The notes under the pieces: generated by a model
The model's input: the letters and a program-made list of their open reading frames with translations, nothing else
Database searches by the model: none
What the model was told of the DNA's origin: nothing
Part shown: piece by piece, positions 3,001 to 24,332 of the stretch
How positions within the stretch are numbered: position 1 is the first letter of the stretch
How the letters are laid out: each line of letters begins with the position of its first letter
Translations under genes and position numbers: made by a program
Source: a virus
Lineage: Duplodnaviria > Caudoviricetes
Virus record (IMG/VR): IMGVR_UViG_3300025073_000989
Strand: one strand, 5' to 3'
DNA: 64,000 bases

Positions 3001-6000
3001 CTTTTTTGGCGGCTATTTCTTCAGTAGTAGAAGAATAGATTCTGGTTAATTCGTTTATATCTTGCTCAGATCTAGCTTTGTCTAAAACATTCGACATTTC
3101 TTTTAGATTATCTAAGCTGGATATTCTATAGGATTTATTGTAGTTTATATCCTCAAATTGTCCCTGATTACCTAACTGTTTAGCTATACCGTTGTCGTCA
3201 ACAAAACGAGCTGATTTATATTCTGGATTAACTTTTTTATTTTCTATTTGTAGTCTATTTTCCTCAATAGTTCTACTCCTTACTTCCTCCAGTCTGGCTC
3301 TCAATTCCTCATCAGTATATTTATTACCAACAATACCACCTTCCGCAAATCTCGGCACCTCGCCGGTACTGTTGATATGATCGAGAACAGCATAACCAAG
3401 CTTTCTAGCAGACTCTGTTTTAATTACATATTCACCATTACTTAAATAAGCTGAAATTTTATCGGCCTTTGGACCACCTTCACCAAAAATCCTTCCTCCA
3501 GAAGCTTTCTTTTCTACTTTATCTGGCTTTTTTAAAATACTTTCTATGTTCCTTAAATGATCAGCCGCTTCTTTTGCTGCATTTAAAAGCTGCTGCTGGG
3601 GACTTTCTTTTTGACCTACACCTAAGCTTTTTGAAAGTCTTGCGGCTATATCTTCAAGCTGCTTGTTACCAGAATTACCTAAAGCATCTATAACTGGAGC
3701 CAAAGAATCCTTAATCCCAAGAGTAATAGACCTAAGCTGGCCCATATCGCCTTTTGATAAAGCGTCTATATAAGAATTTAACTTTTCCTCATCCATACCA
3801 CCTAAAGCTTTATCTATAAGATCTCTAAACGAAGTTAAAGCCGAAACATCAGTACCTTCTCCCCCAAATGTTGCTAATCTTTGTATATTAGATATAGCCT
3901 CTTTAAATGGAGCAGCTATAGACTGAAAGTCTTCAAAACCTTGTTTTTTAAATTCGTACTGACGTTCTTCTTTTTGTTTTTGAGGAAGCAGTGCCATCCC
4001 CATCAAGGCCTCTACTTTAGGATTCAAAGCAGTACCGATTAAAGTCTGCATATAACCCGCTTGCTCAACCTCATATTTATTAGCAGAAGCTTTAATATTA
4101 GAACCTGATATATTATATTTAAAGCGCTCAAGTGGAGCTATATACTGCTTACCTAACAGATCAGACGAACCGTACTGGGCTTTCATGGTATCCATGAAAG
4201 TTTTTACCCCAGAAAGATTTTCAGTTATTCTTGTACTGGACACATCTTCCAGTACAATATTCATTCTCTGAAGAGCTCCGGAAACGTTTTCAATTACTTC
4301 TACCTGTCTACCTAATGCCGCAAAGGCATCCGTAGCAGCCCTTAACTTTATTGTATCTTGTTCAATTGCAGAGTCTAGTAAATTTATCTGATTTGTATTT
4401 TCTTCAATGTCTTGTTTATCAATATCCCTTTTAGCAATAAGTTCTGCTTTATTTCCTTCTTTGCTAACTATATCAGACTTAATAGTAGCTACAGTCTGTT
4501 GTAGTCGAATTAAAGTATCGATAGAGTTTTTATAACCTTCACCAAGATTAGAATAAGCGAATTGCTGAGCATTCATTTGTCTCTTATCCATGCGAGGAGT
4601 AAGCTCACCAGGGTAACCGAACAAATCTTTGTTGGTCATCGAACCTATATTATATTTCTTCTCTAACTCATCGCTTTGAAATCCTAAATAAGCTGATTTT
4701 TTATTTGAGAAGTTCTTTAATGCCTGTTCGGCAGCAATATAAGCAGGACGTAATTTCTCTTTACTATTATCAATTTCTTTTGAAGCTTTGGCGGCAGATT
4801 CAGCCAAACGGTCAAGTTCATCGGTTACTTGACCTAAACGGTCTTTTTCTATATCTGTTTTATCTGTCCTATTAGTAAGTTCTAGCTTCTCCTCTGTTAG
4901 TTTTTTCATAACAGACTCGATATTACTTTTTTCAGTTTGTTTTAGCTCTAATTTTTTAAATTCTTCCTCAAAAGTACCAGAAGTACCTTTCATTGAAAGA
5001 GCATTATTCATTAAATTTTTAAATGGATTTTGTATATTCTTAAATCCCTTCAAAAATGTTATAGGATTGGTAAAATCAAAGTCCTTAGAAAAAAGCTTAA
5101 AGTCCTTAAACGCACCTTTAACTTTATCCATAGGTCTTAGGAATAAATCATCAATACCCATATTATAATTTAATAATTTCTTGCCATGGTAACCACCAAG
5201 AAGTTGCTCTGGTGTCATGTCACTAAAACTTCTAATACCAAAATCTACTGTCTGTGGATTATATTTACCAGCCAACATACCACTGGCCTTAGAAGGCTTA
5301 CTCAACCACTGATAAGGATTTAACATACCAAGAGCAGAAGGCTTTCCGGCCTCAGACACCATTCTAGAAACCTCTTGTGCAGAAAAAATCTCATTCACTG
5401 CACGTTTTACTGCTTCGAGTTGCATTTTAAGCTCTTCAGCAAACTTTATTCTACTTAATTCTCTTTGTAACTTACTAGCCTCCTCAGACATTATTTCAAA
5501 TTCAGATACGAGGTTTTTCTTCATATCATCAATATTATCAGTTACGTTTTTAAACTCATTATCAGTATCCAGTACTAATGATTTTTTAATAGTCTCTACT
5601 GATTGTGTTGTAGTTTTACCTATATCATTAATTTGTTGTTCAAATATCTTTTGAGCAGCCTCTGGGTTTTGTTTTATAAGGTCTTTTATAAGCTTTGACT
5701 CCTCAGCGGCTTTATTTCTGTTAGTAGATACCTCAATATCACCTGCATTTTTTTCAGCCAAATATCCAGCAAAAGTAGCGCCTAATTCTGCCGCCATTAG
5801 CTTTGCTATCTCTGAAGAAGGATCTTGACTAACTGGTCCACCGGCTTTATATTTTCCAATTATACCACCACCAGCAAATCGTGGAATTTTACCAGTTGTA
5901 TTCATGTAATTTAGTCTATCAAGCCCTAACTTATCCACAGCAGAAGCCTTAAATATATATTCCCCAGCACTAGCCATAAGCGGAACTAAATCCGAGGTTG

Positions 6001-9000
6001 GGCCTCCTGGACCAAATACAGCCCCACCGCCTGCCATTTTAGGTGGAGTACTTTTTTCCAAAAGCTCAATGTACTTTTTGTATTCTTCTGGTAGAAAGTC
6101 AGAGACTTTTGGTTTAATAGCCAATGGATCGTCTATTATACCGCCACCTGCCATTTTAGGAGGAACAGTAAGCGCTGAATCATCGCTGTCTCCAAACAAC
6201 ATGTACCCAAGTTGAGCAGCAAGCATTGCCCAACTCAGCCCAGGAATAAACCTTGACAAGCCTTTTAACCCTACCTTACCTACTAGTTTAGATAAAGTCC
6301 CAGAAACAGCCCCAGTAGCTTTACCTACAGCACCTATACTGCCTATTTTCTTTGCAGCATTATATACACCTAGTCCAGTTAAACCACTACCAACTGTAGA
6401 TAGTATTGGAGATCTTTTTACATAACCACTTACATCGTTATACTTAGATCTTAGCCAACTAGGAACTTCGCCATATTTATTCATATAGTCTAAATTCTTT
6501 ATTCCTAATTTTTTAGTTTTATCGGCATTTAGTATATACTCACCATTACTGGCCATAAGGTTAACTTTATCAGAAGTAGGTCCACCAGGACCATGTATAT
6601 ACCCTCCTGTGGCTTTTCCTTCAGGCTTATCTTTATTTAAACCTTTTATTGCATCTAGTATAGCACTCAATCTGTCTACCTGCTCTGGTCCAACGTCCTG
6701 ATCTTTTATTACATCTGTTTGTTCTTTTATGGCAGCTATAGTCTCATCTGATACTCCGTATTTTTCCTTTTCTGACCCAACATCCTTCATAAAAGCCTCA
6801 CCGGCTCTTCTTACCTTAAGCATATCCATGGTACCAACATCCTCACCACGCGCTTTTTTAGCTAAAACCTCCTCCATTGTTTTTTCAAAAGTTGATGCCG
6901 AGGCTGGCATTTCAGTATCAGATGCTTTACTTAGTAGCTTTAATCCAACATAAGTGGAAACCGCTGCTACTCCCATTTTCTTTATATTTGCTTCTGAAAA
7001 ACCCAAAGCCTGCGCAAACTGAGTCGAACCAGAAGTAATTAGTGATAACGACTGAAGCACGCCATATATGTCTGCTTTTTTCTGAGCTTCGGCACGTTTG
7101 GATTCTAGGGCTGATGTATCTTGACCGGCCGTCTTTGCTACACTTATTTGTTCATCCAGAGCATCTATTATTTTATTAGATCCACTTTTGCTTAAAGTAG
7201 AATAAATAGAACTAGCAGCAGCAGTTTTTGCTATATTTTTAGAAGAAATAAATGTGTCCTCATTATTCTCTGCCTGAAGATCTGCTATACGCTTTACGTC
7301 TTTATCGAAAGAAGGCTGTCCTTCTACTTTTGCCAAACCAAACCACTTTCTTTCTGGAGGAAGAGCGGATCTAAGTTCAGTTATAAAATCTTTATAGTTT
7401 ACACCACTATAAGCCCTTTGAGACATTTCTTCGGGCGTAAAATTATTCTTACCAATAGCATAATTCCAATCTACCTTACTAATAGCTTTTTTTATACCTA
7501 CTTCATCCACCAACTGTTTAGATAGTACATCTAAAGCTTTATTAGCTGAGGCCATTTTATCAAAATCACCGGAAGCTGCCGCCTCATCTCTAATTCCAGC
7601 TACTCTTTCCAGAGCCTCCTTGGTTCTGCCTGTTTTACCAAAACTTAAACTAAACCTATCGGCCCAACTACTCAAAAGACTTTCTACTATTTCTGTATCA
7701 TCGGTTTGGCCTTCTATAAGCCTATCTAATCTCTCAACAGTAGCAGCAGTATTATCTGCAACCTTACTAGTCTCTATCTTTAATTCTGCAACACCGGTAT
7801 CACCTGTTCTAGCCACAACCTCAGTATATTTTTTCATATCTTCTGGGCTTAGAACAGAACCAAAGCCTTTAGATACATTCCTTATACTCTCTAAAGCCAC
7901 CTTAGCCTTTTCTGCAGAAAAAACATTTTCTGATAAACCTGTTCTTTTTAAGTTTAATTCTCTCAAAGAAGAAGCTGCTTTCTCAAAGTTTGAATTATCT
8001 CTTAGGGCTCTTTGTTGAGCAGTTAAATTGTTATAACTTTCAGCCCCTAAATCTACATTAGCCAATTCGGAAAAATGACCTTTTAATAAACCACCAGTAT
8101 CAACCATTAATGCTTGTCTTGTTTTTTCTATAGCTACATTTTCTTTAAGTGCCCTAGCTCCAGCTTCAAACTCTTTAGTAAGATCAGTTAATATAGCTCT
8201 ATACTGAAAAACAACTTGGTTATTTTTCAGTATTTCCTGCAATCTTGTTAGTTCTTCAAAAAGACCAGTAGATAAGCCCTCTTTGTTATCTAAACCTTCA
8301 GCTTTTAGTTTTACCAACTCCTCTAAAGATCTTCTATAATCAGACATGGGCTTTTCATAAAACTCCTTAAAGTCCTTTGCCCAACTTTGCTGAAACGGAG
8401 AAGAACCAAAACCACTTTTAGGTGTAAAACCTTTATCCCCTTGTATAATACTTGTAGTAGCTATATCACTAAAAAATCTTTCGCCCAAATTAAAGTCTCT
8501 TTTAAAATCTTTGGCTGAAATACCACGCAAACCAGCACCAGCACCAGCAACAAACTCATTTAATGCATCTATACGGTCGGATAGGTCTTGTTCTATTGCT
8601 TTTTGTGGAAATATGGAATCAGCCATTTTCTGCATAGATTTATCAAATGGCCGCTCTTCTACCTGCAAAGTTTTGGTATTAAAATAAGTAGCTACCCACT
8701 CAAAAACACCATCAGTAGTCTCTTTAAGTCTAACTATAGCCTGATTACCGGCAATATTATATTTATCCGCAGCGCCATCAATAAAAGTAACCAGATCATT
8801 ACTTAGTAGTTTACCCTCTCTCTTAGAAACGCCTGATGTTTCCAGACGAGCAGTAGTTAATATAGAAGTAGCATCAAAAGAGGAAGCCATTTCAGGAAAA
8901 ACCCTCTTCATTACATCTGCACCTAAAACATCCTGCCACTTAATCTTACCTTTAGTTTCGTTGAGGTTAAATCTAGGCTCAACATCCAGCATTAACTGGT

Positions 9001-12000
9001 AACCTTTCTTTAATTCAGGATTATTAAATATATTAGATATCTCTTTAGGATTTAATCCGTCTGTAGATATATTAGATAATGTCTTTTTGAAATCAGAGTA
9101 GGTCTCATTAAAGTTTTTCTTAATTGTGTCTAGCTGACCTTGATACTTAATTATATCTTTATCAAAAGCTGTAGATAGTGGTGTTTTACTACGAGCACTT
9201 ATTAATTCATTTAGTCTAGTAGTTAGTACCTTCATAGACTTAGCTGGAGTAACTTCAATACCCTTAGCAAGTAGTTCACCAAAAACAGGGGCCTCTTTTA
9301 TAAGTTCCCTTAGTTCATACTTCCATTTTTCAGGGCCCTCTGTTTGAGTTAACGCCTCTATATGCTTTGAGGCTACTCCTATTTCCACCTTTGCCATATC
9401 CTTAAGTTTTACCTTTTCTAAGACCTTAAGGTAGCCTTTTAGATTATCTTTGGTGCTCAAAATAGCATTACCCAATTTATCATATCCAGCTATTAATCCT
9501 AAATTTGAAGTAGCTAAAGAGTTAGTAGTAGAGCTTACCTCTTTTTGAAAATTAGCAAGAGCAATAAGAGGACTAACATAAGTACCTAGTTCCTGTTTTC
9601 TAGACTTTTGATTAGGATCTCTCGATGCTTGTATATTTTTAAGTTTACTTGATAAGGTATCATAATTAGTAAGCAGTCCTCTAATAGAAGAAAGTTCAGA
9701 TTCTTGCGCTCTTCTAGTTCCATATACAGACTTCTCATAATCTTGAGATGAAATCAACAAACCCCTATACTTATTATTTAGCCCATTAAAGGCATACCCA
9801 AGACCAATAACCGTAGCGATTAACGGACTTATAGATTTAACTAAATCCGAATTTTTAGAGGCAAAAGCCTCTACAAACTTTGAAGCCCGCTCACCACCAA
9901 ATTCTCCTGCCTTCTTAGCAGCATACCCTGTAACTTCAGCACCTACAGCCGCCCCAGTAGCTAATGCTCCTACACCTTTTAGAACTGGGCCAGGTGAACC
10001 AGCAGTAGCCAGTGCGGATAGATGATCTAGTTTATCACTAAAACTCTCTACTGCCCCACCAGCAGAGGCCAACCCTTTAGCCCCCGTACCTACCACAGTA
10101 CCTAGCCACTTATTATAACTTTGCCCTGTATTACTTAGTAGAAATAATGTTTTTCCTAAAGATGAGTTAAAGTCTTTTAGTGTTTTTCCTTGTAAAGCCT
10201 CATCTACATCTCTTTTTAGTGTCTTAAGCCCAAGGTCTTGGCCTGGACCCTTACCTAGTACTTCAAACTTGGCGTTTGTTATTTCTCTATCAAAATTTCC
10301 TCCAAACTCTTTAAAAATAGAACTTGCTCCAGCAAGAAGATCTGTTAACTTGCCTATTACGTACCCGCCTTTAGACATGTAAGCAAAAAACAAAGTTAAA
10401 GAAGTAAGGGCAACTTTTACTGGACCAGGAATAGCGGAAATTGACTCTAACAGAAAACGCATACCCTTTAATCCAGTCTTAAAAACAGGAAGAGCCACTT
10501 TACCAAAAGCTATTTGTAGCTCTACAGCCGCTGCTTTGGTTTGCTCTATTTGTTTTTGATAAGTATTCATAATTTCAAGATTACGTCTTTCAGCCGAACC
10601 TTTTGAATTTACGCTATCTCTAACGGCCCTAAGTACATCATCCCACTTATCCATCATAACAATTAAAGAGTTATATTGACGAGTACCGCCTATAGCTTGA
10701 GCAATATTTAGTTTTTGAGCACTAGTCAAAGAATTCCACTTACTGGCTAAATCACCTAGTACATCAAAACCCTTTCTTAGTTCTCCAGACGGCGTCATTG
10801 TAGATATGCCCATTTTAGCTAATTCTTCTGGTCCTTTTTCAGCAGATAATCTTCTCAAAATAAAGCGCATCGAAGTACCAACCTCATTACCAGTCTGACG
10901 AGTAGTAGACCCTACAGCCGCAACAATACCATTTAATTGATCAAAATCAACACCAGCAACTTTAGCAGCAGAGGCGGATTTTTTAATAGCATTTGCCATA
11001 TCACCAGCAGTAACAGCAGTTTTAGCCTCAACTTCACTCCAAGCATCCATGAAACGCATCGAGCTTTCACCTTCTCTACCAAAGATGCTCATAGCAGCGG
11101 TCAAAGCCTCCGTAGCATCTTTTGCGTTAAGGGTAGTAACGTTGGCTGCCAACGTAGAAGTTTTAGTTCTATCGATAATTTCTGCTTGTGATAAACCTTG
11201 CTGAGCAAAAATTTGCATGGATTTTAAAACATCTTTAATACTTATACCATATTTTTTAGAAAATTTAATAGCAGATTCCTGCAAGGAGTCAAAGTTAGCT
11301 TCTAATGGACTCATTACCATTTTAATCCGAGCCATAGCTGTCTCTACATCTCCCATAGTATCTACGCTTTGGGCAAGTTTAGCGGTACCTCCATAAACTA
11401 AGGTAGAAGCAGCACCCCACTTAGCGGCCCTTACAATAGCACCACGAAACCCTTTCTGAGTACCCTGCATCATAGCCGTCATATCACGCTGTTTATCGTG
11501 AAAAACACCTACTTTTTTCCCAGTCTCGTCTATTGTTTCGCCATACTTATAAAAATCAGTTATTATATTTTTAAGTACATTACCGGTTTCATCAAATATC
11601 TTAGTGGTGTAAGACATCCTTTCTCCAACCTTGGCGCCGCCCTCTTCTTCAGTTTTACCATAGTATTCCTTAAGTTTTTGAATATTCATGGTATGCATGG
11701 CCTGCTGCTGAGCAGGATCAATCCATTTTGGAACCTTAACGGTACCAGTAGTACCATAAGAAGACGGGTTTGGTTCTATGCCTGCTGGTAAATACGCGGA
11801 TTCAACACTCTTAAGGTACTTTATTATATTTTCTATATTCTTTGATTTATCTGGCTCATCTGTAGAAATATTAAATTTCTTGTATTTTTCTAAAGAAGCC
11901 CTCAGCCTAGTTACTCTATCACCCATTCCTTGAAAGTCCCAAGCTTTGGCGTAAGACGAGCCCATTCTATCTACAAAGTCTTTTTTCTCCCTATCATTAA

Positions 12001-15000
12001 GAATATCTATTTTTTCTTTATTAACAGAAGTTAATTCATCTAAAATAGCCCTAGTTTTCTTAGCCGGCGCCATCCTTTCTCCAGACTCAGCATCAGATAT
12101 TATACTCTTAAATATATCGCCAAGCTGGTCATCTTCGCCTAACGGTCCTTGGGCCTGCCTAATCAACTCAGCTGGAGGTATAAAAACTCCAGCCGACTCT
12201 GCTAATTTAGAGTCTAGATGTTGTTTATTAACTGTATATATATCACTAGGTTTACCCATACCCCTTTTAACAAATTCCTGCATTCTAGAAATAGAATCTT
12301 CATATTTAGCATATGCCATAGGGGCCATACCTACACCCCTTTCTTCCTCTAAAGCAATCAACTCTTTCCTAGCGGCAGCTATTTTATTTAGGTAATACTC
12401 ACCCAAAGCCAGCCTATAAGCCTTCCATGCCTTTGTTATCATATTACCTGGAAGACCCTGTTGGTTATCAGTCCTTTTAGCTAAATCGGTAGCTTCTTTA
12501 GTAGCATCTATGAACGTTTGATAATCTGGTCCTTCGGAAACAGCCCTTTTTAGTAGATCGGCAATAGTATTAGGGACGGATTCAGTTACGTCATTAAACT
12601 CCACACCTAGGTCTTTCTGACTTAAAATAGCTTGATTTTGTAATTCTCTTAGATTTTTAGAAGTATCATCTAATAAATTACCGCCCCTATGTATTTTTGG
12701 AGGTATCCTGTAATCACTAGGAGTGGCATCAGACAGAGACGAACCTTTAGTAAACCCAGGAATAATTCTAGATTTAGTACTGTTTATATCATCTTCTATT
12801 TCTCTAAATGCTTTTTTATTATGTCTTTTAGTATATAGCTGTTGAGCTTTACTCATGAAAGAAGAAAGTTCTTCATCAGATAATTCAACTCTTTTGGATT
12901 GGGCGCTTTTTAGTTCCTCAAAGGAACCTGTCTTAGCGTAAACAGCGTCTGGTCCTAACTCTTCCCTAGCGACCTTTATGGCCTCTATATCTTTTTTATA
13001 ACGCTCTGTGTCTTTTTTAAACTTAACTACGGTTTTCTCGGAATCGCTGCCTTTACCCGCAGCAGAGTAAAACCAACCCTCAGATTTAATATCAGGAGAA
13101 GCTTCATCTCCCAGAGCCTCTATATAAAAATTAACTTGCGAAGCAGTATCTTCAAGTTTTTTTCTAAGGTAAGTATAGTTGCTTTTTCCAGAAATATGTT
13201 TAATTATATCATCAAAATCATTACCAACAACGGATATAACTTCACTAAGTTTATCTATAAAATTTGAACTAGATGTTTTTATATCTACTAATTCGGTTAC
13301 TAAGTTGTCTGATTTTTTAAGCATATCAATATGCCCAGTAATTTCTCCAACATCAGTAACTTTACTTACCAACCTCTCTGCTTCGTAGCCTTTACTTTTA
13401 TATTCTCTTTGAACCTTTTCATGCAGACCAGTACCAACAACAGCAGTAGTCCTCAATGCTGGACTTTCTGATTTTGTACCCAACATAGTTGCTTTTATAG
13501 CCTCTATTTGTGACCTCACGCGATCTTCTTCAGTGTTAATAATGTCATTGTATTTTCCGCCAGAAGATATACCACTAGCTCTAAAAACTTTACCAAAATC
13601 AGTACCAGAAAGTTCGTTTGAGTATCCAGATAAAGCACTAGCCGTACGTTCTAAGTCATCTAAGGTTCCTACAAGAGATGGAGTACCGGCCTTAGTATAT
13701 TCTATATTATCCTTTAGTTGGATAAAAGAAAGATTATCGGCTATACTTGCTATGTGCACAGATATAGGAGAACCTTCATATTTAAAAGGCAATGGTTTAT
13801 TACCATCAAAATCATCAGAAGGAGCACCTGTATCTTTACCGCCACCAGAACCCCCACCTGAACCACCGGAACTTCCAAAAGTAGACATAAAGTCACTTTC
13901 CTCGGTCCTATGAGCTTTAGTTGGTTTTCTATGTCTATCATAGCGCTTAAAATCGTTTACGTCAGCAACCCTTAAATCATTAGGCGTAAAAACACTCTTT
14001 ACTACATCAGGAGCAGACCTTTTTAGTACAGAAAGAATCTGATCTACTTGATGTAATTTAGTAACATCTTTCAAACTATCATTAAATGCTTTTTCCTTTT
14101 CTTCTGCTGTATTACCACTAGAAATATTAAGATCCTTTAGCCCCTCAGAAAATGACATCTCAACGTCTTTTCTAACAGACTTAACCCCAGTAATATCTAG
14201 CATCTTATTAAAAGTATCTTCATTGTAAAATAGTTCTTTATGGCTCTCAGATAAATTACCAGAAGAAAGACGAGTAAATAATTCCTCAGCCGACTGGTTT
14301 AAAAATGTTTCTGGATTACCGGCACTCCTAACCAACCTTATAATCTCATCCTGCTCTTTAACTAGTCGCCTAGACGAACTGTTTACCATATCAGCATAGG
14401 CGCCACCAGCTGTACTAGCACTCTGTATATCACCAAGCGCCGATTCTATTTCCGCAACTGTAGCTTGAAGTCCTTTTTTAGAAGAATCACTACCAGAACT
14501 AGCTCTAGTAAACCCATGCAAAGGCATATATGCATCAGAAAAATATTTCTTTATAGGATCTGCATTTCCAGACTTTAGCTTTTCCCAAGCATTGCTTTTA
14601 TAGGTATCAAAATCTACTGGTTTTCCTTTTATAGTAGGATTAATATCATACTCCTTCTTTATACCCTTATTTATAGCGTTTGCAATATCCTTACTAAGGT
14701 CACTTATAAAGCCACTAAACCCCTCTTTAGAGATTAAATCTTCTAGTAATGCCTTTCTACCAGTAGGTATTTTACCACTATACCCTTTAATACTATATAG
14801 ATTTTCAGCCTCAGTTTTTAATTCACCAGTAGACATAGCACCGAAACGCATCTTTAAAGAGGCTTCGTTTTGTTCCATAAACTCTTTCAAGCCCTTTAAA
14901 TCATCTTCTGTATTTACTCTACTTATAAAAGCACTAGAATCCCCTTTTGCAAAGGTTAATGCTCTTATAATATCCCTAGAAACTGTACCTTCACCTGCGT

Positions 15001-18000: not shown

Positions 18001-21000
18001 TTCTTCCAAAGTGATTTACAAATACCTCTGCTAATTCTGCAGCCTGTACTTCTACGTCCTTTGCTCTAACTACAGCTATTTTCTTTTTAACGTCCTCGAT
18101 AAGTGCCTGATCAGCTCTACCCTCATATTTACCTGTAGTTTTTCCAAATATCTTTTGGTACTCAGCACTAGCTGACTTTATTCCTCCGGTCAATGCTTTT
18201 AGTATTTTTGGTTCAATATCATCTATGGCATGAGCACTATCCCCTAAACCCTCTATCGACATTAATCCTTTTGCACTAGGTAATACTAGTGTTTTTACGA
18301 TAGAGGTTAGAGCGTCTGCCAGCTTTCCACCTATCATTATTTGATCTTCAAAAGTACCAGCAGTGTGCCTGAGCTCAGTAGTAACATTAAAACCATAACC
18401 TTGTTTACCAAAAGCACCTGACTGTATTAAATCGCGTTCTCTAGTAGTTCTCAGTTGAGGGTATTCAGTGGTTATTCCGCCAGCAAACCTGCTACTTCCA
18501 GGAAACTTATCCGCCCATTTTTCTATATCATCCATCGATGATGACATAGCATTAGTTACATTTGTTATATTTCTACCGGCCTGCTGAAACTGTCCGAACG
18601 GGGCTTGTTCTCTTAAACTATCGGAATATAGCCTAAGCGAATGTCCTTTAAGTCCTTTACTAAGGAACTTTGTACCCTCAGTTAAAGGCTCTTCATCCGT
18701 ACCTGTAACAGCACCGCCTCTATAGTATGTGTATCTACTAGCCTGAGATTCAGGTAAACCAAGACTAGACAGATATTTAGCATTTAGACCTTTTAGTTGT
18801 GACGGTTTGTCTACTATACCTGCCTTATTAAGCGCATTATTGACTGCAGTCATTTCATCAAGACGCACATTAGTTGAGCGATAAGCGTTTTTAACTTCAT
18901 CAGGACCTAATTGTTTTACATCTTTTAAAAAGTCAGAGGTCATTATATCGAAATCAACAACTTTTTGTTGGTGAAATCCCCTTCTTGGTCTTCCAGGCTC
19001 AATAACTGGAACCAGCTGCTCTACTTGTGCTATAGCCTGTTCGAACTCTCTAATGTTTTTATCGTGTTGAGGATTTTTAGCTAATCTAGAAACAAGACTT
19101 TCAAACTGTTTATTGTTTGTGCCAATGTTAGCATTTAATACCTTATCTATAGTATCATAGAAACTTTCAAAACGTACACTATCTAAAGTCTTTACTGCAT
19201 CAGTAGTACTAACACCAAACTTTTTTTGCATAGAGGAAAAAAACTTAGGCAAATCATCTAAACTACTATTATCTAAAAAAGCATAAACAGAGTCACTAAC
19301 TTTTTCTATTTCTTGTTTAAGTTCTGTTGGAGATAAATTTGATTTATCAATAGCTGTTTTTGAAATAACAGCCTCTTTATACAACTTTTTTATATCTACA
19401 GCACCGGTTGCCTTAGCTTTGGTTAATAATTCACTAGATAATTGTTTGGGAACATCTGATTCTGGGTGTAATAGAGCCGGAACTATCTTAGACGCCAAAC
19501 TATTTATATCATTATCATCTAAACTTCCACTTCTTTTACTTATCTCACCTAATAATTTTTCATAACCAGAATCATATACAGCCCTTCTTGATAAGGCCCT
19601 ATCACTGCCATGAACGGTTTTTACCGTAGCAACGCCGCGCTCAGTTAATCTAGCTGCGGGTAAAGATACTACACGCATCAAACCTTTGGCTTGTAATTCT
19701 CTTTCTACGGTCTCTTTTCCAACAGTGGCTGTAAATATATCATCCAATGCCCCTAGTATATCTTTATTCTCCCTAATAGTATCAGGTTGTTTTTGTGCTT
19801 TAATTAGTTTTTGAATTAACTCCTGACTTAAACCTAAATTTTTTATATCTGGCTTAGACGCATGCTTTAACCAATCTGATATTTTCTCTAAAGCAACATC
19901 GGAGCCACTAAGATGCATATAATCAGAAGAACGCTTTCTTATGTAATCTTTTATTAGACCCTCACCACTACCGATAGCTCCAGTACTTCTTATTGCATCC
20001 GTGTTGATCATCCTAACAGACCACTGCCTAGCAGTAGTTGGATCACCAACTTGTTTAAATTTGTCGTCCACCAAAGACCAGCCCTTAGCTAGCTGCTGAC
20101 TCAAAGTAGTAACTATGTTTTTTGACATATTACTAAATGTTTTATTTAAAAACTCTACGTTATCTCTAACATACTTAAAGTCATCACTATCGGAAGTTAC
20201 CGAGCTGGCTTTTCTAATTCTATCAGAATTAATATCAGTCTTGCCTGGACCTATTACGCCTGATGGGTAGTGCCCTATTTTATATGTACTTAATTTTCTT
20301 GATATATCTTCCCAATTCTTAGCAGTTTTACTGGTTGCAGCTGTAACGTCTTTTTGTGATTCTAAAACAGCATTTGTGCCTTGAACTATCTGCTTACTAC
20401 TGTCAGAGGCTTTAACCATGCCTGAACCAAAAGCATCTACATGAGCTCTGCTATTATCTATAGACTCAGCTAAAGCATCCATGCCAGCTACAGGCACACT
20501 ATTCTTAAGTTTTATTAAAGCGGCAGTAAGTTCTGTTTGTAATTTTGAATCAGATGCTTGTGAATAATTAAGTAATGCATCTACATCTCTAGTTTTAGCA
20601 GCAGTCTTAATTCTAGTAATATCATGCTCACCACTTTTAATCTCTACTTTATTGCCTTTAGCTTTTTGCTGATCGAGTTCCTTAGTTTTTTCTTTTATTA
20701 GTCTAGAAACCAAGGTATCCACTGCATCATTTAATTCCTTATAGTCCTTATCACTAAGCTGAGTAACCGAAGTAGGTAATTTGTTAGGAAGCTTAGTAGT
20801 AATTTGTTTATTAACGCTAGCAGGTATGGGTTTTTCAGAAAGTTTATATAACTCTTCTAGCTCTTTTCTATAAGCGATTATTGCGTCAATAGCAGCATTT
20901 ACTTCTGCCGGCTTACCTACAGCAGTCTTAATAGTCAAGTCTGTCTTTAATTTAGAAAGGGTATTATTAGTCCACTTTATAGCTTTATTTACGTCAGTAG

Positions 21001-22081
21001 TATCTGATATGAATGCATATTCTACTTTTATAGGCTTTTTTTGTAATTTTCTAACAAGATTATTATAAGCATCTTCTACTATATCTAAGTTAGTACTAAC
21101 TTCTATTTCGGTTTTGGAACTACCTAAAAGTTCAAGAAGTTTAGTTATATCACTAATGGCTTTTTTGTCTACGTCTACATTTATAGTAGATGACATAGAT
21201 TCTATATTCTTCTTTAGCTGACCAATTCTTGCGCTTAAAACGCTATCTACTTTACCCGACATTCTTTCTGAGGCCTTTTCTATAGCCCCACCAACATTTG
21301 CTCCTACTTTATTTATTTTGGTACTTAAGTTATCTCCGGCACTTTCTATACTGGATTGGACTTTACCTCCAGCAATATCTGCGGCTTTTTTGAAGGCTAC
21401 CTCAGCAGCCCTAGCTAAAAGATCACCAGCAGTACCACCAACAGCCTGACCAATGTACTTACCAGCGGATTTAGCAGCCTCGTCAGTTCCTCGTTTTATC
21501 TCTCCTCTAATTACAGTTCCAGCATCTCTTGAAGCAGCCTTAATGTTGTCACCAACAGCTGAAACTCCAGCATCTAAACCGTCTGTAAGTACTTTCGAGC
21601 CCTTTTTAAAACTAGCATCTAGTTCAGAAGACAAAGCTCCTTTTATTTTGTCCAATAGACCTTTATCGTCTATTACTATTTCCACTGACTTAGTCTGTCC
21701 TGAAGGAACTCCAGCTACTTTAGTTTTTATGTCATCTCTAAGCTGTTTAAACTCATTCCTTAAGACAGCAACCAACTCTACACTAGTTTTATCTGATGTA
21801 CCTAATTCTTTTAGAATTTGTCTAAGTGTTCTCTCCAAGCCACTGTAATCACCAGCATTTACTGATCCGCCAGTTTGGGTATGCACCCTAAGTAGTTTTT
21901 CAATAGCCGATACTAAATCCTTACTAGTTGCTCCTATAGCTTTTTCTACAGAAGAAGCAATCTCTTGGGCCATTGGCCTAAAGTTTGTTGTACTACTAGA
22001 TATAGTGGAAGGGGATGAAACAGAACCACCACCTTTAGTGGTAGAATCCTTAATATTAATATTAAGATTATGTGTAGACAA
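1..22081 (-). CDS. Giant tail tape-measure protein fused to a two-barrel RNA polymerase and a PD-(D/E)XK nuclease (at least 7,360 aa, 3' end outside the window)
   Basis: TTG start at 22081 preceded by AAGGAGG. The same frame was open in every segment translated (MSTHNLNINIKDSTTKGGG at the start; SKSTVKVEFENLEKIEDIL at the window edge). It lies directly after the tail-tube and chaperone genes and contains a TP901-type tape-measure domain. Not every codon was checked. Confidence 0.9.
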   Translation of the reverse strand, partial: MSTHNLNINIKDSTTKGGGSVSSPSTISSSTTNFRPMAQEIASSVEKAIGATSKDLVSAIEKLLRVHTQTGGSVNAGDYSGLERTLRQILKELGTSDKTSVELVAVLRNEFKQLRDDIKTKVAGVPSGQTKSVEIVIDDKGLLDKIKGALSSELDASFKKGSKVLTDGLDAGVSAVGDNIKAASRDAGTVIRGEIKRGTDEAAKSAGKYIGQAVGGTAGDLLARAAEVAFKKAADIAGGKVQSSIESAGDNLSTKINKVGANVGGAIEKASERMSGKVDSVLSARIGQLKKNIESMSSTINVDVDKKAISDITKLLELLGSSKTEIEVSTNLDIVEDAYNNLVRKLQKKPIKVEYAFISDTTDVNKAIKWTNNTLSKLKTDLTIKTAVGKPAEVNAAIDAIIAYRKELEELYKLSEKPIPASVNKQITTKLPNKLPTSVTQLSDKDYKELNDAVDTLVSRLIKEKTKELDQQKAKGNKVEIKSGEHDITRIKTAAKTRDVDALLNYSQASDSKLQTELTAALIKLKNSVPVAGMDALAESIDNSRAHVDAFGSGMVKASDSSKQIVQGTNAVLESQKDVTAATSKTAKNWEDISRKLSTYKIGHYPSGVIGPGKTDINSDRIRKASSVTSDSDDFKYVRDNVEFLNKTFSNMSKNIVTTLSQQLAKGWSLVDDKFKQVGDPTTARQWSVRMINTDAIRSTGAIGSGEGLIKDYIRKRSSDYMHLSGSDVALEKISDWLKHASKPDIKNLGLSQELIQKLIKAQKQPDTIRENKDILGALDDIFTATVGKETVERELQAKGLMRVVSLPAARLTERGVATVKTVHGSDRALSRRAVYDSGYEKLLGEISKRSGSLDDNDINSLASKIVPALLHPESDVPKQLSSELLTKAKATGAVDIKKLYKEAVISKTAIDKSNLSPTELKQEIEKVSDSVYAFLDNSSLDDLPKFFSSMQKKFGVSTTDAVKTLDSVRFESFYDTIDKVLNANIGTNNKQFESLVSRLAKNPQHDKNIREFEQAIAQVEQLVPVIEPGRPRRGFHQQKVVDFDIMTSDFLKDVKQLGPDEVKNAYRSTNVRLDEMTAVNNALNKAGIVDKPSQLKGLNAKYLSSLGLPESQASRYTYYRGGAVTGTDEEPLTEGTKFLSKGLKGHSLRLYSDSLREQAPFGQFQQAGRNITNVTNAMSSSMDDIEKWADKFPGSSRFAGGITTEYPQLRTTRERDLIQSGAFGKQGYGFNVTTELRHTAGTFEDQIMIGGKLADALTSIVKTLVLPSAKGLMSIEGLGDSAHAIDDIEPKILKALTGGIKSASAEYQKIFGKTTGKYEGRADQALIEDVKKKIAVVRAKDVEVQAAELAEVFVNHFGRKFTTRYGSKGVSITPGTGLGFANVPKTMGEMGSELLDREVSTFSDPELLNTFKVLSEDLKKSGNKFMLDIFKDPSKGIVSDKKEIKFENTLYEEFSKQINKLYGVNVENIEDLQKLYKDVTGGGTTKKVPIDVRISSYGAGKRGLQTEVMELITNNLAGTGKGGTTTLPTEFSPEAYKRLLPGGDITKASSTLGFKGIDKSKKAITDDLKKSGYSEDMAKKAAEIERLSNFYVDVEDELGNKVKSLVGSKFLQVIQEPHAFAEWKASDIEKGLKGIKLNLPAYASYASVFGEKSALMDEIKNQADLSSREQFEYVKALLIGMGKNKQHVQQALDDMKTVELKDIKQWSGHLGSFLIDSAGTQSLHNTLLDTEKFPSAFSVNIPSGGPDNDLKSVKSGRKEPFYVPGPLIRKSYDDPLIAGAKAPDKITRRLQQIIDYSKDVENLLAGSDTDISTDDIKKAITNKAYTLAKDSKIPVTADDELFKLYDAIAKSSKNEDRARNSAKKNYESQGTRAYATAISATLKAGDSTDDSLQDIVKTFNIDVSNDTKLERAMKLLNQAKEDYYSDLAKAVLGKSGGVAGSLFTRRIPSIMAKAINAVVDKTDEFSSFSNNLQDISSTYGDLSISGIEKLPSLSKSFAAIGSEHALKVESYKKAGVPVLKQDELGIPEDMAKKLSVRFTRRYTNEGEDIYVGNQREKKETLHSLLKYSETLAKAKPGDDKINKYINDELVPYVESVRFPFTGTSSIQPYKAKLLSGEMGAHALTVPGMPEMDFAKFDQALGEVKAIRSSAVEKRETLRSNDEEGNQVEIQRLTELINKLNGAISEILPKYIAHQQKLDFDGDEIEVHTAKTSDARKDIKKHFDLLSKDVDTTAGVFRDYFTNEAMQPSQGEYPLAFMYKAMSKKFPEAGFLEKPFLERTDPDYGSKFKSAIDANLFKVHTGPETEALYRVTRLFESQNALGKGQLGADDTTLEGKLSRERNTQMNELLRFSIQKGMDVKHAGEGTVSRDIIRALTFAKGDSSAFISRVNTEDDLKGLKEFMEQNEASLKMRFGAMSTGELKTEAENLYSIKGYSGKIPTGRKALLEDLISKEGFSGFISDLSKDIANAINKGIKKEYDINPTIKGKPVDFDTYKSNAWEKLKSGNADPIKKYFSDAYMPLHGFTRASSGSDSSKKGLQATVAEIESALGDIQSASTAGGAYADMVNSSSRRLVKEQDEIIRLVRSAGNPETFLNQSAEELFTRLSSGNLSESHKELFYNEDTFNKMLDITGVKSVRKDVEMSFSEGLKDLNISSGNTAEEKEKAFNDSLKDVTKLHQVDQILSVLKRSAPDVVKSVFTPNDLRVADVNDFKRYDRHRKPTKAHRTEESDFMSTFGSSGGSGGGSGGGKDTGAPSDDFDGNKPLPFKYEGSPISVHIASIADNLSFIQLKDNIEYTKAGTPSLVGTLDDLERTASALSGYSNELSGTDFGKVFRASGISSGGKYNDIINTEEDRVRSQIEAIKATMLGTKSESPALRTTAVVGTGLHEKVQREYKSKGYEAERLVSKVTDVGEITGHIDMLKKSDNLVTELVDIKTSSSNFIDKLSEVISVVGNDFDDIIKHISGKSNYTYLRKKLEDTASQVNFYIEALGDEASPDIKSEGWFYSAAGKGSDSEKTVVKFKKDTERYKKDIEAIKVAREELGPDAVYAKTGSFEELKSAQSKRVELSDEELSSFMSKAQQLYTKRHNKKAFREIEDDINSTKSRIIPGFTKGSSLSDATPSDYRIPPKIHRGGNLLDDTSKNLRELQNQAILSQKDLGVEFNDVTESVPNTIADLLKRAVSEGPDYQTFIDATKEATDLAKRTDNQQGLPGNMITKAWKAYRLALGEYYLNKIAAARKELIALEEERGVGMAPMAYAKYEDSISRMQEFVKRGMGKPSDIYTVNKQHLDSKLAESAGVFIPPAELIRQAQGPLGEDDQLGDIFKSIISDAESGERMAPAKKTRAILDELTSVNKEKIDILNDREKKDFVDRMGSSYAKAWDFQGMGDRVTRLRASLEKYKKFNISTDEPDKSKNIENIIKYLKSVESAYLPAGIEPNPSSYGTTGTVKVPKWIDPAQQQAMHTMNIQKLKEYYGKTEEEGGAKVGERMSYTTKIFDETGNVLKNIITDFYKYGETIDETGKKVGVFHDKQRDMTAMMQGTQKGFRGAIVRAAKWGAASTLVYGGTAKLAQSVDTMGDVETAMARIKMVMSPLEANFDSLQESAIKFSKKYGISIKDVLKSMQIFAQQGLSQAEIIDRTKTSTLAANVTTLNAKDATEALTAAMSIFGREGESSMRFMDAWSEVEAKTAVTAGDMANAIKKSASAAKVAGVDFDQLNGIVAAVGSTTRQTGNEVGTSMRFILRRLSAEKGPEELAKMGISTMTPSGELRKGFDVLGDLASKWNSLTSAQKLNIAQAIGGTRQYNSLIVMMDKWDDVLRAVRDSVNSKGSAERRNLEIMNTYQKQIEQTKAAAVELQIAFGKVALPVFKTGLKGMRFLLESISAIPGPVKVALTSLTLFFAYMSKGGYVIGKLTDLLAGASSIFKEFGGNFDREITNAKFEVLGKGPGQDLGLKTLKRDVDEALQGKTLKDFNSSLGKTLFLLSNTGQSYNKWLGTVVGTGAKGLASAGGAVESFSDKLDHLSALATAGSPGPVLKGVGALATGAAVGAEVTGYAAKKAGEFGGERASKFVEAFASKNSDLVKSISPLIATVIGLGYAFNGLNNKYRGLLISSQDYEKSVYGTRRAQESELSSIRGLLTNYDTLSSKLKNIQASRDPNQKSRKQELGTYVSPLIALANFQKEVSSTTNSLATSNLGLIAGYDKLGNAILSTKDNLKGYLKVLEKVKLKDMAKVEIGVASKHIEALTQTEGPEKWKYELRELIKEAPVFGELLAKGIEVTPAKSMKVLTTRLNELISARSKTPLSTAFDKDIIKYQGQLDTIKKNFNETYSDFKKTLSNISTDGLNPKEISNIFNNPELKKGYQLMLDVEPRFNLNETKGKIKWQDVLGADVMKRVFPEMASSFDATSILTTARLETSGVSKREGKLLSNDLVTFIDGAADKYNIAGNQAIVRLKETTDGVFEWVATYFNTKTLQVEERPFDKSMQKMADSIFPQKAIEQDLSDRIDALNEFVAGAGAGLRGISAKDFKRDFNLGERFFSDIATTSIIQGDKGFTPKSGFGSSPFQQSWAKDFKEFYEKPMSDYRRSLEELVKLKAEGLDNKEGLSTGLFEELTRLQEILKNNQVVFQYRAILTDLTKEFEAGARALKENVAIEKTRQALMVDTGGLLKGHFSELANVDLGAESYNNLTAQQRALRDNSNFEKAASSLRELNLKRTGLSENVFSAEKAKVALESIRNVSKGFGSVLSPEDMKKYTEVVARTGDTGVAELKIETSKVADNTAATVERLDRLIEGQTDDTEIVESLLSSWADRFSLSFGKTGRTKEALERVAGIRDEAAASGDFDKMASANKALDVLSKQLVDEVGIKKAISKVDWNYAIGKNNFTPEEMSQRAYSGVNYKDFITELRSALPPERKWFGLAKVEGQPSFDKDVKRIADLQAENNEDTFISSKNIAKTAAASSIYSTLSKSGSNKIIDALDEQISVAKTAGQDTSALESKRAEAQKKADIYGVLQSLSLITSGSTQFAQALGFSEANIKKMGVAAVSTYVGLKLLSKASDTEMPASASTFEKTMEEVLAKKARGEDVGTMDMLKVRRAGEAFMKDVGSEKEKYGVSDETIAAIKEQTDVIKDQDVGPEQVDRLSAILDAIKGLNKDKPEGKATGGYIHGPGGPTSDKVNLMASNGEYILNADKTKKLGIKNLDYMNKYGEVPSWLRSKYNDVSGYVKRSPILSTVGSGLTGLGVYNAAKKIGSIGAVGKATGAVSGTLSKLVGKVGLKGLSRFIPGLSWAMLAAQLGYMLFGDSDDSALTVPPKMAGGGIIDDPLAIKPKVSDFLPEEYKKYIELLEKSTPPKMAGGGAVFGPGGPTSDLVPLMASAGEYIFKASAVDKLGLDRLNYMNTTGKIPRFAGGGIIGKYKAGGPVSQDPSSEIAKLMAAELGATFAGYLAEKNAGDIEVSTNRNKAAEESKLIKDLIKQNPEAAQKIFEQQINDIGKTTTQSVETIKKSLVLDTDNEFKNVTDNIDDMKKNLVSEFEIMSEEASKLQRELSRIKFAEELKMQLEAVKRAVNEIFSAQEVSRMVSEAGKPSALGMLNPYQWLSKPSKASGMLAGKYNPQTVDFGIRSFSDMTPEQLLGGYHGKKLLNYNMGIDDLFLRPMDKVKGAFKDFKLFSKDFDFTNPITFLKGFKNIQNPFKNLMNNALSMKGTSGTFEEEFKKLELKQTEKSNIESVMKKLTEEKLELTNRTDKTDIEKDRLGQVTDELDRLAESAAKASKEIDNSKEKLRPAYIAAEQALKNFSNKKSAYLGFQSDELEKKYNIGSMTNKDLFGYPGELTPRMDKRQMNAQQFAYSNLGEGYKNSIDTLIRLQQTVATIKSDIVSKEGNKAELIAKRDIDKQDIEENTNQINLLDSAIEQDTIKLRAATDAFAALGRQVEVIENVSGALQRMNIVLEDVSSTRITENLSGVKTFMDTMKAQYGSSDLLGKQYIAPLERFKYNISGSNIKASANKYEVEQAGYMQTLIGTALNPKVEALMGMALLPQKQKEERQYEFKKQGFEDFQSIAAPFKEAISNIQRLATFGGEGTDVSALTSFRDLIDKALGGMDEEKLNSYIDALSKGDMGQLRSITLGIKDSLAPVIDALGNSGNKQLEDIAARLSKSLGVGQKESPQQQLLNAAKEAADHLRNIESILKKPDKVEKKASGGRIFGEGGPKADKISAYLSNGEYVIKTESARKLGYAVLDHINSTGEVPRFAEGGIVGNKYTDEELRARLEEVRSRTIEENRLQIENKKVNPEYKSARFVDDNGIAKQLGNQGQFEDINYNKSYRISSLDNLKEMSNVLDKARSEQDINELTRIYSSTTEEIAAKKAKDVAAEKAKLSEDMAKQAGIRYLTDTGTSEEEAKRISGLSREEVAMEYKTDQEIERIRKEREDKIKNEKAKVFDREEAYKIAKSGSDMAFSGSSGNSWYDQMIEHSEAAHKSVIERHSEIKDLDTKGLGNKLKNYPKMAWDWSTNFATETLRFFSGAPFIAMAKSAGEGLAKRKLKLDEQKGTSGWRLGNVPEAVFSQAVDTSKNIAGTFSSESILAMGNALKKDYEETGFTSTLGSVAGPMLSGKLLSGAIASRSPKTLMEKQAEELTKLRTAAQEASDTGRPYTARFREAKANKYQTNIAESAHREALGIPSAYDKLKTVAGSGIKKGFGSAIDIGKSSLSSAWGGLRKSYYSVKSGDFAESVLKGVYKTTDAIKITTDFLNKGMDKTRPIVTGVMDKTKTTISDISANKPKINDLLNKTMGVTGDTAEAVKQHISGFSGTDLVKNVKQYLSDAQAKAAELTSKAGSKAAESPFLSRALYKAAESPFLSRALYKAMDLTEAAKQHISGISGTKVGDLAKQAYGFGKQKLSELSGTKASSLAESFKQRMADAQAKAAELTSKAGSKAAESPFLSRALYKVMDLTEAAKQRLFKIKNKLTKKALGGPVFFASGGIVDDKYSYLGTYGNQRLTDEEYKKAQLEAPTASQLIEEAKKNKHSFDEGVTLNDTLRNIDPSTTVPIDKMRYFSEADNFEFSQIRAKMAQGLLTKEELNSAVASAKLGNKQPKLVKDPLNEYKQNKAAERVSLENNIANYLASTKAISPEQAGAIKSSDGLGRSLSMVGVGYKRGELGEYIITKMPDKGDVVPYSELIKSKEYERYKAGFQSFINPTKEDNVQDEYTKALVPVIEKVKAAVALPTDLKNNLDLLGISSTKTWSGESDIDQIKRLIKELKRAKGEVDWYDRGTGSTGWQGSDADKKALGGRVSFNFPKSRVMHDGGLIKDTGPYLLKEGEVVVPDAPASGGTAELQKSILNSISTNNSKSTVKVEFENLEKIEDIL
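1229..1638. repeat. Near-identical in-frame direct repeat with a nested 39-bp tandem duplication
   Basis: 1229-1347 recurs at 1481-1638 (offset 252 bp). The second copy carries CTTTATACAGCGCTCTAGATAGGAAAGGACTTTCGGC twice (1510-1548 and 1549-1587). Confidence 0.95.
3335..6620 (-). repeat. Three copies of a ~55-aa GGxxxGPGGPTSD..P..SNGEY module in the tape-measure protein
   Basis: KATGGYIHGPGGPTSDKVNLMASNGEYIL (~6465-6620), MAGGGAVFGPGGPTSDLVPLMASAGEYIF (~5865-6040), KASGGRIFGEGGPKADKISAYLSNGEYVI (~3335-3510). Confidence 0.85.
10500..11460 (-). other. TP901-family tape-measure core domain (PhageMin_Tail-like)
   Basis: Translation: KWGAASTLVYGGTAKLAQSVDTMGDVETAMARIKMVM...AAVGSTTRQTGNEVGTSMRFILRRL...LAKMGIST...FDVLGDLASKWNSLTSAQKLNIAQAIGGTRQYNSLIVMM, the typical signature. 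Confidence 0.9.
13124..13600 (-). other. RecB/Cas4-like PD-(D/E)XK nuclease domain inside the giant ORF
   Basis: Motifs in order: FRASGIS, VGTGLHEKVQ, EAERLV, ITGHIDML (Asp at 13325-13327), ELVDIKT (13277-13285), SQVNFY (13124-13138). Confidence 0.75.
15473..18601 (-). other. Two-barrel (double-psi beta-barrel) RNA polymerase catalytic core inside the giant ORF
   Basis: Beta-like motifs in canonical order: PFGQFQQAGRNI (~18601), GFNVTTELRHTAGTFEDQIMI (FED 18344-18352), GRKFTTRYGSKGVS (17966-18007), PIDVRISSYGAGKRGLQTEVME (~17550-17615). Beta'-like motifs follow: LFTRRIPSIMAKAINAV (~16210-16255), QDELGIPEDMAKKL (~15979-16018), VRFPFTGTSSIQPY (~15755-15795), KLDFDGDEIEVH (DFDGD 15473-15487). 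Confidence 0.9.
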
Positions 22082-23180: not shown

Positions 23181-23217
23181 AATGTGCTTATATTAATAAA
23201 CTAGTTACTTAATTAAA

Positions 23218-23979
23218 CTATATTTTATCTACATTTATTTTTTTATCAGTGTTTTTAATTTTAGTAGTCTTTAGTTTCTTTGGAAGCTCCTTAGCCTTTT
23301 CTTGCTCTTCTTTAGCTAATATTTCTTCTGATATAGCTTTAGCAGAAAGCATAGCATCCCTTGCTTTGTCTAAAACACTAGTTTCTACTTCACGCATAGC
23401 AACCGCTTCCGGTGTATTTTCTAAAAAGTTAGAGTCAAGTCCTTGTAAATAAAGCATGGTTTCAAAACGAGCTTTCATAGCAAGTTGTTGATTTTTTTCA
23501 GATTTATAGGCATCAAAAGTAGACCATACTCTAGAAACGTCCTCTTTTTGAATTATACATGATGTTAAAAATTCAAGACGGGCGTCGTCTGCTATTTGTT
23601 CACAGGTATTGCTCATTGGACCATTCAGTCTTTGATTCCACTGAAATACTTCTTCTCGGGCCATAGCTACTTCAACAGCTAAAGTTCTTTTTAAATCCAT
23701 ATCTGTGGTTTCTTCTAATTTGTTTATTTTGTAATTCAAAACACCTATTAATTCTTTAGCGCGCTGTTCAAACTCTGGACCTATAATACCGCGCCGCATT
23801 AAAATATCCATCATCTCAGCACTAGTAGTAATACCCTCTACCAAACTAGTTGTATAGGTTTTACTGTACTGCCAATCCGCACCTCTAATATTCTCAGCAG
23901 TAGGTACCCCTATAAAATAAATATCACCCTCATCATCTAGATCAAAACTTCTCCTTAAATCCACATTAGTATTATCCAT
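23218..23979 (-). CDS. Putative tail assembly chaperone, 253 aa
   Basis: Lies between tail-tube and tape-measure genes; paralogous to 22155..23180. Confidence 0.55.
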   Translation of the reverse strand: MDNTNVDLRRSFDLDDEGDIYFIGVPTAENIRGADWQYSKTYTTSLVEGITTSAEMMDILMRRGIIGPEFEQRAKELIGVLNYKINKLEETTDMDLKRTLAVEVAMAREEVFQWNQRLNGPMSNTCEQIADDARLEFLTSCIIQKEDVSRVWSTFDAYKSEKNQQLAMKARFETMLYLQGLDSNFLENTPEAVAMREVETSVLDKARDAMLSAKAISEEILAKEEQEKAKELPKKLKTTKIKNTDKKINVDKI

Positions 23980-24250: not shown

Positions 24251-24271
24251 TCCAAAATCCTCCTTTAATCA

Positions 24272-24313: not shown

Positions 24314-24332
24314 CTAGCCTTAATACCTCAAA

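Follow-up and report, generated by a model that had tools for sequence, protein, structure and literature searches.

We analyzed a 64,000-nucleotide stretch of viral DNA (hereafter the window) from the IMG/VR record IMGVR_UViG_3300025073_000989 (Duplodnaviria; Caudoviricetes), in which a first-pass annotation made from the letters of the DNA had proposed a two-barrel RNA polymerase (RNAP) embedded in the tail tape-measure protein. The window belongs to a virus record of 175,247 bp with a CheckV completeness estimate of 66%. Its dominant feature is one stop-free open reading frame (ORF) that encodes 7,360 amino acids (aa) in the window (Table 1) and 7,570 aa in the full record, the 3' end lying approximately 630 nt past the left edge of the window. 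The start codon of this giant ORF is TTG, located 9 nt downstream of the ribosome-binding site AAGGAGG, and its N-terminus is common to homologues. Genes are arranged in the order large terminase, portal, major head protein, several genes without assignment, the giant ORF, and then large genes encoding Laminin_G, SPRY and F5/8 domains (fibre-like, lectin-domain proteins), which places the giant ORF in a tail-gene module, as is characteristic of a tape-measure protein. The Pfam domain PF10145 (PhageMin_Tail) was found at residues 3601–3800 (window 11281–10682) with a score of 104 bits (E 1.2e-29; cut-off 33.2), and PHROG tape-measure families cover residues ~3540–5100 and parts of the C-terminus, with PHROG 4211 as the best match (232.9 bits). 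Because of these Pfam and PHROG matches and the gene order, we assigned the giant ORF as the tape measure of a tailed phage.

The first-pass annotation had placed the polymerase at window positions 14100–20200, which correspond to residues 627–2660 of the giant ORF, and had listed eight motifs equivalent to those of the RNAP active site, followed in the same chain by the tape-measure core. When the translated ORF was searched, every one of the eight motifs was located at the residue given (Table 1). The tape-measure core does lie C-terminal to the polymerase, no stop or frameshift separates the two, and the same architecture occurs on more than 45 independent contigs. In an alignment of 37 sequences spanning residues 1155–2354 (A1, mean column identity 36%), residues E1245, D1246, K1361, R1365, K1369, D2199, D2201, G2202 and D2203 are invariant. 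All 79 members of the family that reach 4,000 aa or more have the D-x-D-G-D signature (as D[FYL]DGD in 78 and as DHDGD in 1), and the invariance of the catalytic residues extends to the whole family. Because the active-site residues are invariant at a mean column identity of 36%, the motif matches go beyond what chance would produce. Full-length alignment of the relatives showed two conserved blocks, at residues ~600–2500 and ~3200–5100, flanked by variable ends. The module that contains the motifs extends from residue 1155 or 600 to residue 2690, and is thus ~1,500–2,100 aa in size (roughly 170–230 kDa).

Predicted fold of the polymerase module

Two structural models of moderate confidence were produced: model 1, obtained with AlphaFold2 on alignment A1 (predicted local distance difference test score, pLDDT, of 73.5; predicted template modelling score, pTM, of 0.57), and model 2, an AlphaFold model of residues 1930–2760 (pLDDT 70.4, pTM 0.65). 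They were compared with known structures by alignments that report only the ends of the aligned ranges. Almost all of the top 50 Foldseek matches of model 1 in the PDB were β/Rpb2 chains, with weak E-values of 0.06–0.4, and the β-like structural alignment begins at Rpb2 PFPDHNQSPRNT, that is, at the first motif pair of the first-pass annotation, in a region that corresponds to the hybrid-binding domain. Residues 530–1200 of model 1 matched the A190 subunit of Pol I (score 11.0, 319 residues aligned), Mycobacterium tuberculosis β' (10.7, 326 residues), Rpb1 (10.6) and archaeal A' (10.3); residues 510–791 scored 8.4 with the archaeal clamp domain, and Neurospora QDE-1 scored 10.4 across both halves. 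The top 50 rows for model 2 were nearly all largest subunits. Phage phi14:2 gp66 was not among the structural matches listed.

In the predicted structure, a β-type double-psi barrel presents conserved basic residues (two Lys) to the active site and a β'-type double-psi barrel bears the metal-binding DxDxD motif. Both polymerase barrels are therefore present in the module as modelled, in agreement with the pair of barrels that had been anticipated from the sequence, and they match the β and β' subunits, respectively. A helical insert had also been proposed just ahead of DFDGD, and the model shows a helical hairpin there (residues 2134–2187). It adjoins a second hairpin (residues 1963–2014), and the pair resembles a four-helix bundle. 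The candidate bridge helix lies within a stretch that is collinear with Rpb1 up to residue 1453, as given by the ends of the aligned range. Model 2 is disordered from approximately residue 2692 of the giant ORF, with pLDDT below 50 from model residue 763 onward. As modelled, each half appears structurally nearer to the β or β' subunit of multisubunit-type polymerases than to QDE-1 or to gp96, the polymerase of Thermus phage P23-45.

Two viral proteins were also matched by model 1. The best viral match (Foldseek E 2.8e-4, probability 0.99) was the 'Minor tail protein' of Siphoviridae sp. ctnpt50, BFVD entry A0A8S5SD80. This entry holds the opening 1,423-aa segment of a long tail protein and may therefore represent another tape-measure–polymerase fusion already in UniProt. 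The second was protein A0A172Q0S6 of the Acinetobacter jumbo phage ME3 (E 0.012).

Relatives of the fused protein and a stand-alone polymerase

Direct sequence searches with the polymerase region did not lead to known polymerases. No significant polymerase match, gp96 included, was obtained when PDB sequences were searched with phmmer and with the family hidden Markov model (HMM), and none was obtained among the PHROGs. When the family profile was compared with the single E. coli RpoB and RpoC sequences using hhalign, only the catalytic motifs were aligned and the matches were not significant. Relatives of the giant ORF itself were readily found, 46 by a word-indexed search and 113 by exhaustive phmmer. 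Fragments aside, all of them are 4,000–8,000 aa long, contain PF10145 and lie on contigs of up to 318 kb. The polymerase module occurs in ~100 sequence clusters, every complete one being a giant tape-measure protein on a phage contig (up to ~320 kb), and the fusion of polymerase and tape measure was recovered on independent contigs from JGI, ENA, Logan and NCBI.

A second family, of single-chain β–β' polymerases that stand alone, comprises more than 360 proteins of ~1,050–1,190 aa (alignment A2), and the 22 members tested all match Pfam Rpb2_6 and Rpb1_2. The fused module aligned with this family over 460 columns, covering the β-like half and the connector, with an hhalign probability of 99.1% (E 7.5e-19). 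The β'-like part has diverged much more strongly and reached a probability of only 20%, around DFDGD. Two related IMG/VR records (G002 and G003) each hold the fused module plus a stand-alone ORF, of 1,085 or 1,178 aa, with the sequence GLDFDGD, and two further stand-alone members lie on contigs of 307,814 and 311,571 bp, sizes equal to those of contigs with tape-measure homologues. Because of the 460-column profile match and the co-occurrence in related genomes, the fused polymerase is, on sequence grounds, a paralogue of the free β–β' polymerase of its own clade. Stand-alone polymerase loci were mapped at L061:335–3592 and L062:301–3837, both on the plus strand.

The conserved region ahead of the first barrel (residues 600–1154) returned nothing in a protein atlas search and aligned with the stand-alone polymerase weakly, although collinearly, with an hhalign probability of 2%. 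Given this value and the 20% obtained for the β'-like part, the polymerase module may begin at residue 600 or at residue 1155. Neither the fused nor the stand-alone polymerase had a match among 50,697 GenBank phages searched by tblastn, and we found no paper on this clade or on any further tape-measure–polymerase fusion. The "moraphage" lineage of large aquatic phages was considered as the clade and rejected, because it is reported to have no detectable tape-measure and polymerase genes (PMC12619734).

Other domains and neighboring genes

The features of the giant ORF and the other genes mentioned are collected in Table 1.

Table 1. Features of the giant ORF and of other genes in the window. 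Residues are those of the giant ORF; a single number is the first residue of a motif or repeat.
Feature	Residues	Window position	Strand	Remarks
Giant tape-measure ORF	1–7360 (in window)	2..22081	-	Homologues of 6,000–8,000 aa with the same architecture
N-terminal region	1–599	20285..22081	-	Poorly conserved, low complexity or helical; ~10% identity to homologues
Conserved region ahead of first barrel	600–1154	18620..20284	-	20–30% identity across the family
β-like half	1155–1664	17090..18619	-	Predicted hybrid-binding domain and double-psi barrel B
PFGQFQQAGRNI	1161	18601–18566	-	β-like half
GTFEDQI	1242	18358–18338	-	β-like half; holds E1245/D1246
GRKFTTRYGSKGVS	1359	18007–17966	-	β-like half; Lys motif K1361/R1365/K1369
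PIDVRISSYGAGKRG	1490	17614–17570	-	β-like half
Connector	1665–1945	16247..17089	-	Resembles β C-terminus and β' N-terminal clamp
LFTRRIPS	1943	16255–16232	-	Begins 3 aa ahead of the barrel A part
β'-like double-psi barrel A	1946–2212	15446..16246	-	Two helical hairpins inserted (predicted)
ELGIPEDMAKKL	2024	16012–15977	-	Barrel A
VRFP	2097	15793–15782	-	Barrel A
KLDFDGDEIEVH	2197	15493–15458	-	Barrel A; D2199–D2203
Remainder of β'-like half	2213–2690	14012..15445	-	Candidate bridge helix, conserved block MNELLRFSIQKGMDVKHAGE, helical C-terminal part
Candidate bridge helix AIDANLFKVHTGPETEALYRVTRL	2284–2319	15211–15140	-	36-residue helix; conserved K.HTG..TE..R
Gly/Ser-rich flexible linker	2736–2748	13838..13876	-	Within the disordered stretch from ~aa 2692, end of polymerase module
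Cas4/RecB-like PD-(D/E)XK nuclease domain	~2856–3000	13082..13516	-	PHROG 1706, E 1.1e-4; GHID...DIK
Conserved tape-measure core	3200–5100	6782..12484	-	PF10145, PHROGs; most conserved block of the family
Variable C-terminal tape-measure part	5101 onward	2..6781	-	Three GG-x-I-x-GPGGP-x-D copies
GG-x-I-x-GPGGP-x-D...GEY(I/V), copy 1	5157	6569–6613	-	
GG-x-I-x-GPGGP-x-D...GEY(I/V), copy 2	5352	5990–6028	-	
GG-x-I-x-GPGGP-x-D...GEY(I/V), copy 3	6194	3461–3502	-	
LAGLIDADG homing endonuclease gene		25908–26726	-	PF03161, E 2.5e-28
HNH homing endonuclease gene		40075–41592	-	PHROG 559, E 2.6e-72
Major head protein gene		42645–43715	-	
Large terminase gene		50575–53631	-	1,018 aa

The nuclease domain sits between the polymerase and the tape-measure core. 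Since a strict motif search found its motif in only 15 of 70 long homologues, we regard it as an optional cargo or accessory domain. Enzymatic domains also occur in the proteins of relatives: P0041 carries a precomputed Pfam RNase_T exonuclease domain (PF00929), and in several others (among P0003, P0010 and P0012) HExxH-type peptidase motifs are found close to the C-terminus. In this family, the giant tape-measure proteins resemble modular vehicles for enzymes that are injected. The three glycine- and proline-rich repeat copies in the variable C-terminal part match several PHROG tape-measure families, and a local duplication, AAESPFLSRALYK, lies further downstream.

Both homing-endonuclease genes lie within the structural module, the LAGLIDADG gene among the unassigned genes that separate the capsid gene from the tape measure and the HNH gene adjoining the major head protein gene. 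Ten ORFs of 92–1,193 aa on the minus strand at window 22155–38135 gave no Pfam or PHROG match save the LAGLIDADG gene, and tail tube, sheath and chaperone genes were not recognized among them; for two further ORFs of this interval, 491 and 729 aa long, the PHROGs gave no match. In the large terminase, the terminase match is limited to residues ~510–965, and the N-terminal half matches a PHROG of no known function and, weakly, endonuclease and helicase families, which points to a possible fusion or inserted element. In the assembly collection, the exact major head protein was found in 28 blocks, on 24 contigs or more, indicating that many samples contain this phage or strains nearly identical to it.

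Interpretation and comparison with known systems

Along the chain, a variable N-terminus is followed by the conserved region, the β-like barrel, the clamp-like connector, the β'-like barrel, the bridge-helix-like helix, a helical end, a linker, the optional Cas4-like nuclease, the tape-measure core and a variable C-terminus. From this order, the invariant residues and the predicted fold, we consider it likely that the giant ORF is a tail tape measure whose N-terminal third (from residue ~600 or 1155 to 2690) forms a folded and, as predicted, catalytically competent single-chain two-barrel DNA-dependent RNAP that is delivered with the virion for early transcription. By analogy with P23-45, the polymerase would enter the assembling virion as a portion of the tape measure and would leave the tail together with it at infection. 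Without relying on the host polymerase, it would then transcribe the leading pre-early part of the entering ~275–320-kb genome and may assist in drawing in the DNA, after which the paralogous stand-alone β–β' polymerase (~1,100 aa, in related genomes) would take over. This appears to be the two-polymerase scheme shown for P23-45, apparently built from different parts.

A number of observations weigh against virion delivery of an active polymerase. The profiles do not reach cellular or PDB polymerases directly, the evidence being structural and transitive, and the Foldseek E-values are weak overall (0.06–0.8). No trigger loop was identified in the models after barrel A, and residues ~1250–1355, which follow GTFEDQI, precede the Lys motif and correspond in position to the flap/wall of cellular β, are modelled as helices with pLDDT 32–64 and no evident β-sandwich. 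The stand-alone polymerase is absent from 3 of 5 related fragments, and none was found in the 175-kb record of the window by motif, phmmer or family profile, a result that is uninformative at 66% completeness. Moreover, the module (~1,500–1,900 aa, with a clamp) greatly exceeds the flat, clamp-less gp96 in bulk, and its fit in, or passage through, the tail tube is unexplained. Since this phage is uncultivated, we infer virion location, ejection, activity and template alike.

The polymerase could be active and still have a mainly mechanical job, being anchored at the tape-measure pore and pulling the long genome in by transcribing it, with gene expression secondary. In phage T7, transcription is established as a driver of genome entry. 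The present genome is of very large size (contigs encoding the protein reach 275–320 kb), the polymerase is covalently joined to the presumed DNA-conduit protein, and the authors of the P23-45 study propose that transcription is concomitant with DNA translocation through the tape-measure pore (PMC10770324). However, this role is compatible with the expression role and nothing in our data separates the two, and the P23-45 virion polymerase has been shown to transcribe defined pre-early genes (PMC10770324). We judge a primarily mechanical role to be unlikely.

Considerably less probable is an exapted, catalytically dead fold whose role in the tape measure would be confined to that of a plug or of a structural or DNA-binding domain. 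Consistent with it are the low confidence with which part of the β-like barrel region was modelled and the high divergence of the β'-like half from its stand-alone paralogue. Nevertheless, the metal-binding Asp residues, the Lys/Arg/Lys set and the Glu-Asp pair are invariant among relatives that share 30–45% identity, which is the pattern expected under selection for catalysis. To an RNA-templated or primer-making enzyme like QDE-1 or YonO, which would not depend on promoters and could, for instance, make primers for replication of the incoming genome, we give slightly less credence still. Finally, a 7,570-aa ORF on a metagenomic contig is extraordinary, but a chimaeric assembly, or the joining of two genes through a sequencing error, can be practically discarded, because single ORFs of 6,000–8,000 aa with the polymerase ahead of the tape measure recur in four sources, on dozens of independent contigs, and the linker region keeps the reading frame and shows partial conservation.

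Virion delivery of an active polymerase for early transcription thus remains our preferred reading, and the fusion probably arose independently of that in P23-45. For the course of events, we lean by a small measure toward a second, independent polymerase–tape-measure fusion, in which a clade of ~230–330-kb phages duplicated its own β–β' polymerase and inserted the copy into a tape measure of 7,000–8,000 aa, keeping the clamp-like domain. Only one such fusion has been described so far, in P23-45, from a small group of Thermus phages (PMC10770324). As judged by sequence comparison, a large and environmentally common jumbo-phage clade shows the same logic with a polymerase and a tape-measure core that are both unrelated to gp96, and convergent evolution thereby becomes testable. 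The clade would offer a second, structurally different system in which to study how a large folded enzyme is stored in and released from a tail, how transcription is coupled to genome entry, and how the infection programme is divided between paralogous polymerases. If the independent fusion is true, delivering a polymerase through the tail is a strategy that has recurred, and a tail can carry and release an enzyme much bulkier than assumed. Among giant metagenomic proteins annotated as "tape measure", thousands may likewise conceal enzymatic cargo, of which this family already presents peptidase motifs in addition to a polymerase, a Cas4-like nuclease and an exonuclease.

The precedents named in the first-pass annotation, P23-45 gp96 (PMC10770324) and the crAss-like virion RNAP (bioRxiv 10.1101/2020.03.07.982082), are genuine. 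In P23-45, gp96 is a protein of 5,002 aa with the polymerase in residues 1–1200 and DFDGD at residue 779 (PDB 8H2M, 8H2N); it is found in virions and transcribes the pre-early genes, including that of the non-virion polymerase gp64, and the two have been proposed to be paralogues, one fused and carried in the virion and one stand-alone (PMC10770324). The protein analyzed here likewise combines, in one polypeptide, a two-barrel polymerase with DFDGD and a giant tape measure C-terminal to it, and its lineage also has a second, stand-alone two-barrel polymerase that is the closest relative of the fused one. The suggestion that the lineage differs from P23-45 also holds: neither the polymerase (hhalign 0.6%) nor the tape measure (BLASTP E of at least 0.48) resembles gp96 in sequence, and there is no GenBank phage match. 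In contrast to gp96, the module is internal, with DFDGD at residue 2199, and spans roughly 1,500–2,100 aa compared with the crystallised fragment of 1,200 aa. Gp96 is flat and clamp-less with a short disordered connector, and its authors invoked this flatness to explain how it fits in and passes through the tail (PMC10770324), whereas the module modelled here has a clamp-like connector of ~280 aa and departs from that flat form. The tape-measure core is of the TP901/PhageMin_Tail type, unlike that of P23-45, and the genome is that of an AT-rich jumbo phage rather than of an 84-kb phage of a thermophile.

The best structural matches of the two halves are β/Rpb2 and β'/Rpb1 of multisubunit RNAPs and their viral derivatives (African swine fever virus, vaccinia, and the AR9 and phiKZ non-virion polymerases). 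The motifs PF..N/Q..RN, FED, G.K....G.KG, P.D....., R.P and DFDGD correspond one to one, and the order of the β C-terminal part, β' clamp, barrel and candidate bridge helix is collinear. Unlike in these enzymes, both halves are in one chain that is fused to a tail protein, no direct profile link exists, other subunits are lacking, two hairpins are inserted in barrel A, and the models show no clear flap/wall insert (sandwich-barrel hybrid motif, SBHM), a feature of the β barrel in cellular-type polymerases (PMC7824862). The stand-alone polymerases of the clade (~1,050–1,190 aa) are homologous to the fused module over 460 columns and share genomes with it in at least 2 records, but they are free of the tail protein, match Rpb2_6 and Rpb1_2 directly, and differ strongly in the β'-like half. 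A single chain with two barrels is also found in phi14:2 gp66 (PDB 6VR4) and Neurospora QDE-1, gp66 being packaged in the virion within a very large protein. The strategy of a virion-carried, injected enzyme that would transcribe early genes recalls coliphage N4, whose virion polymerase is a T7-like right-hand polymerase of unrelated fold that is encapsidated and does not belong to a tail tape measure.

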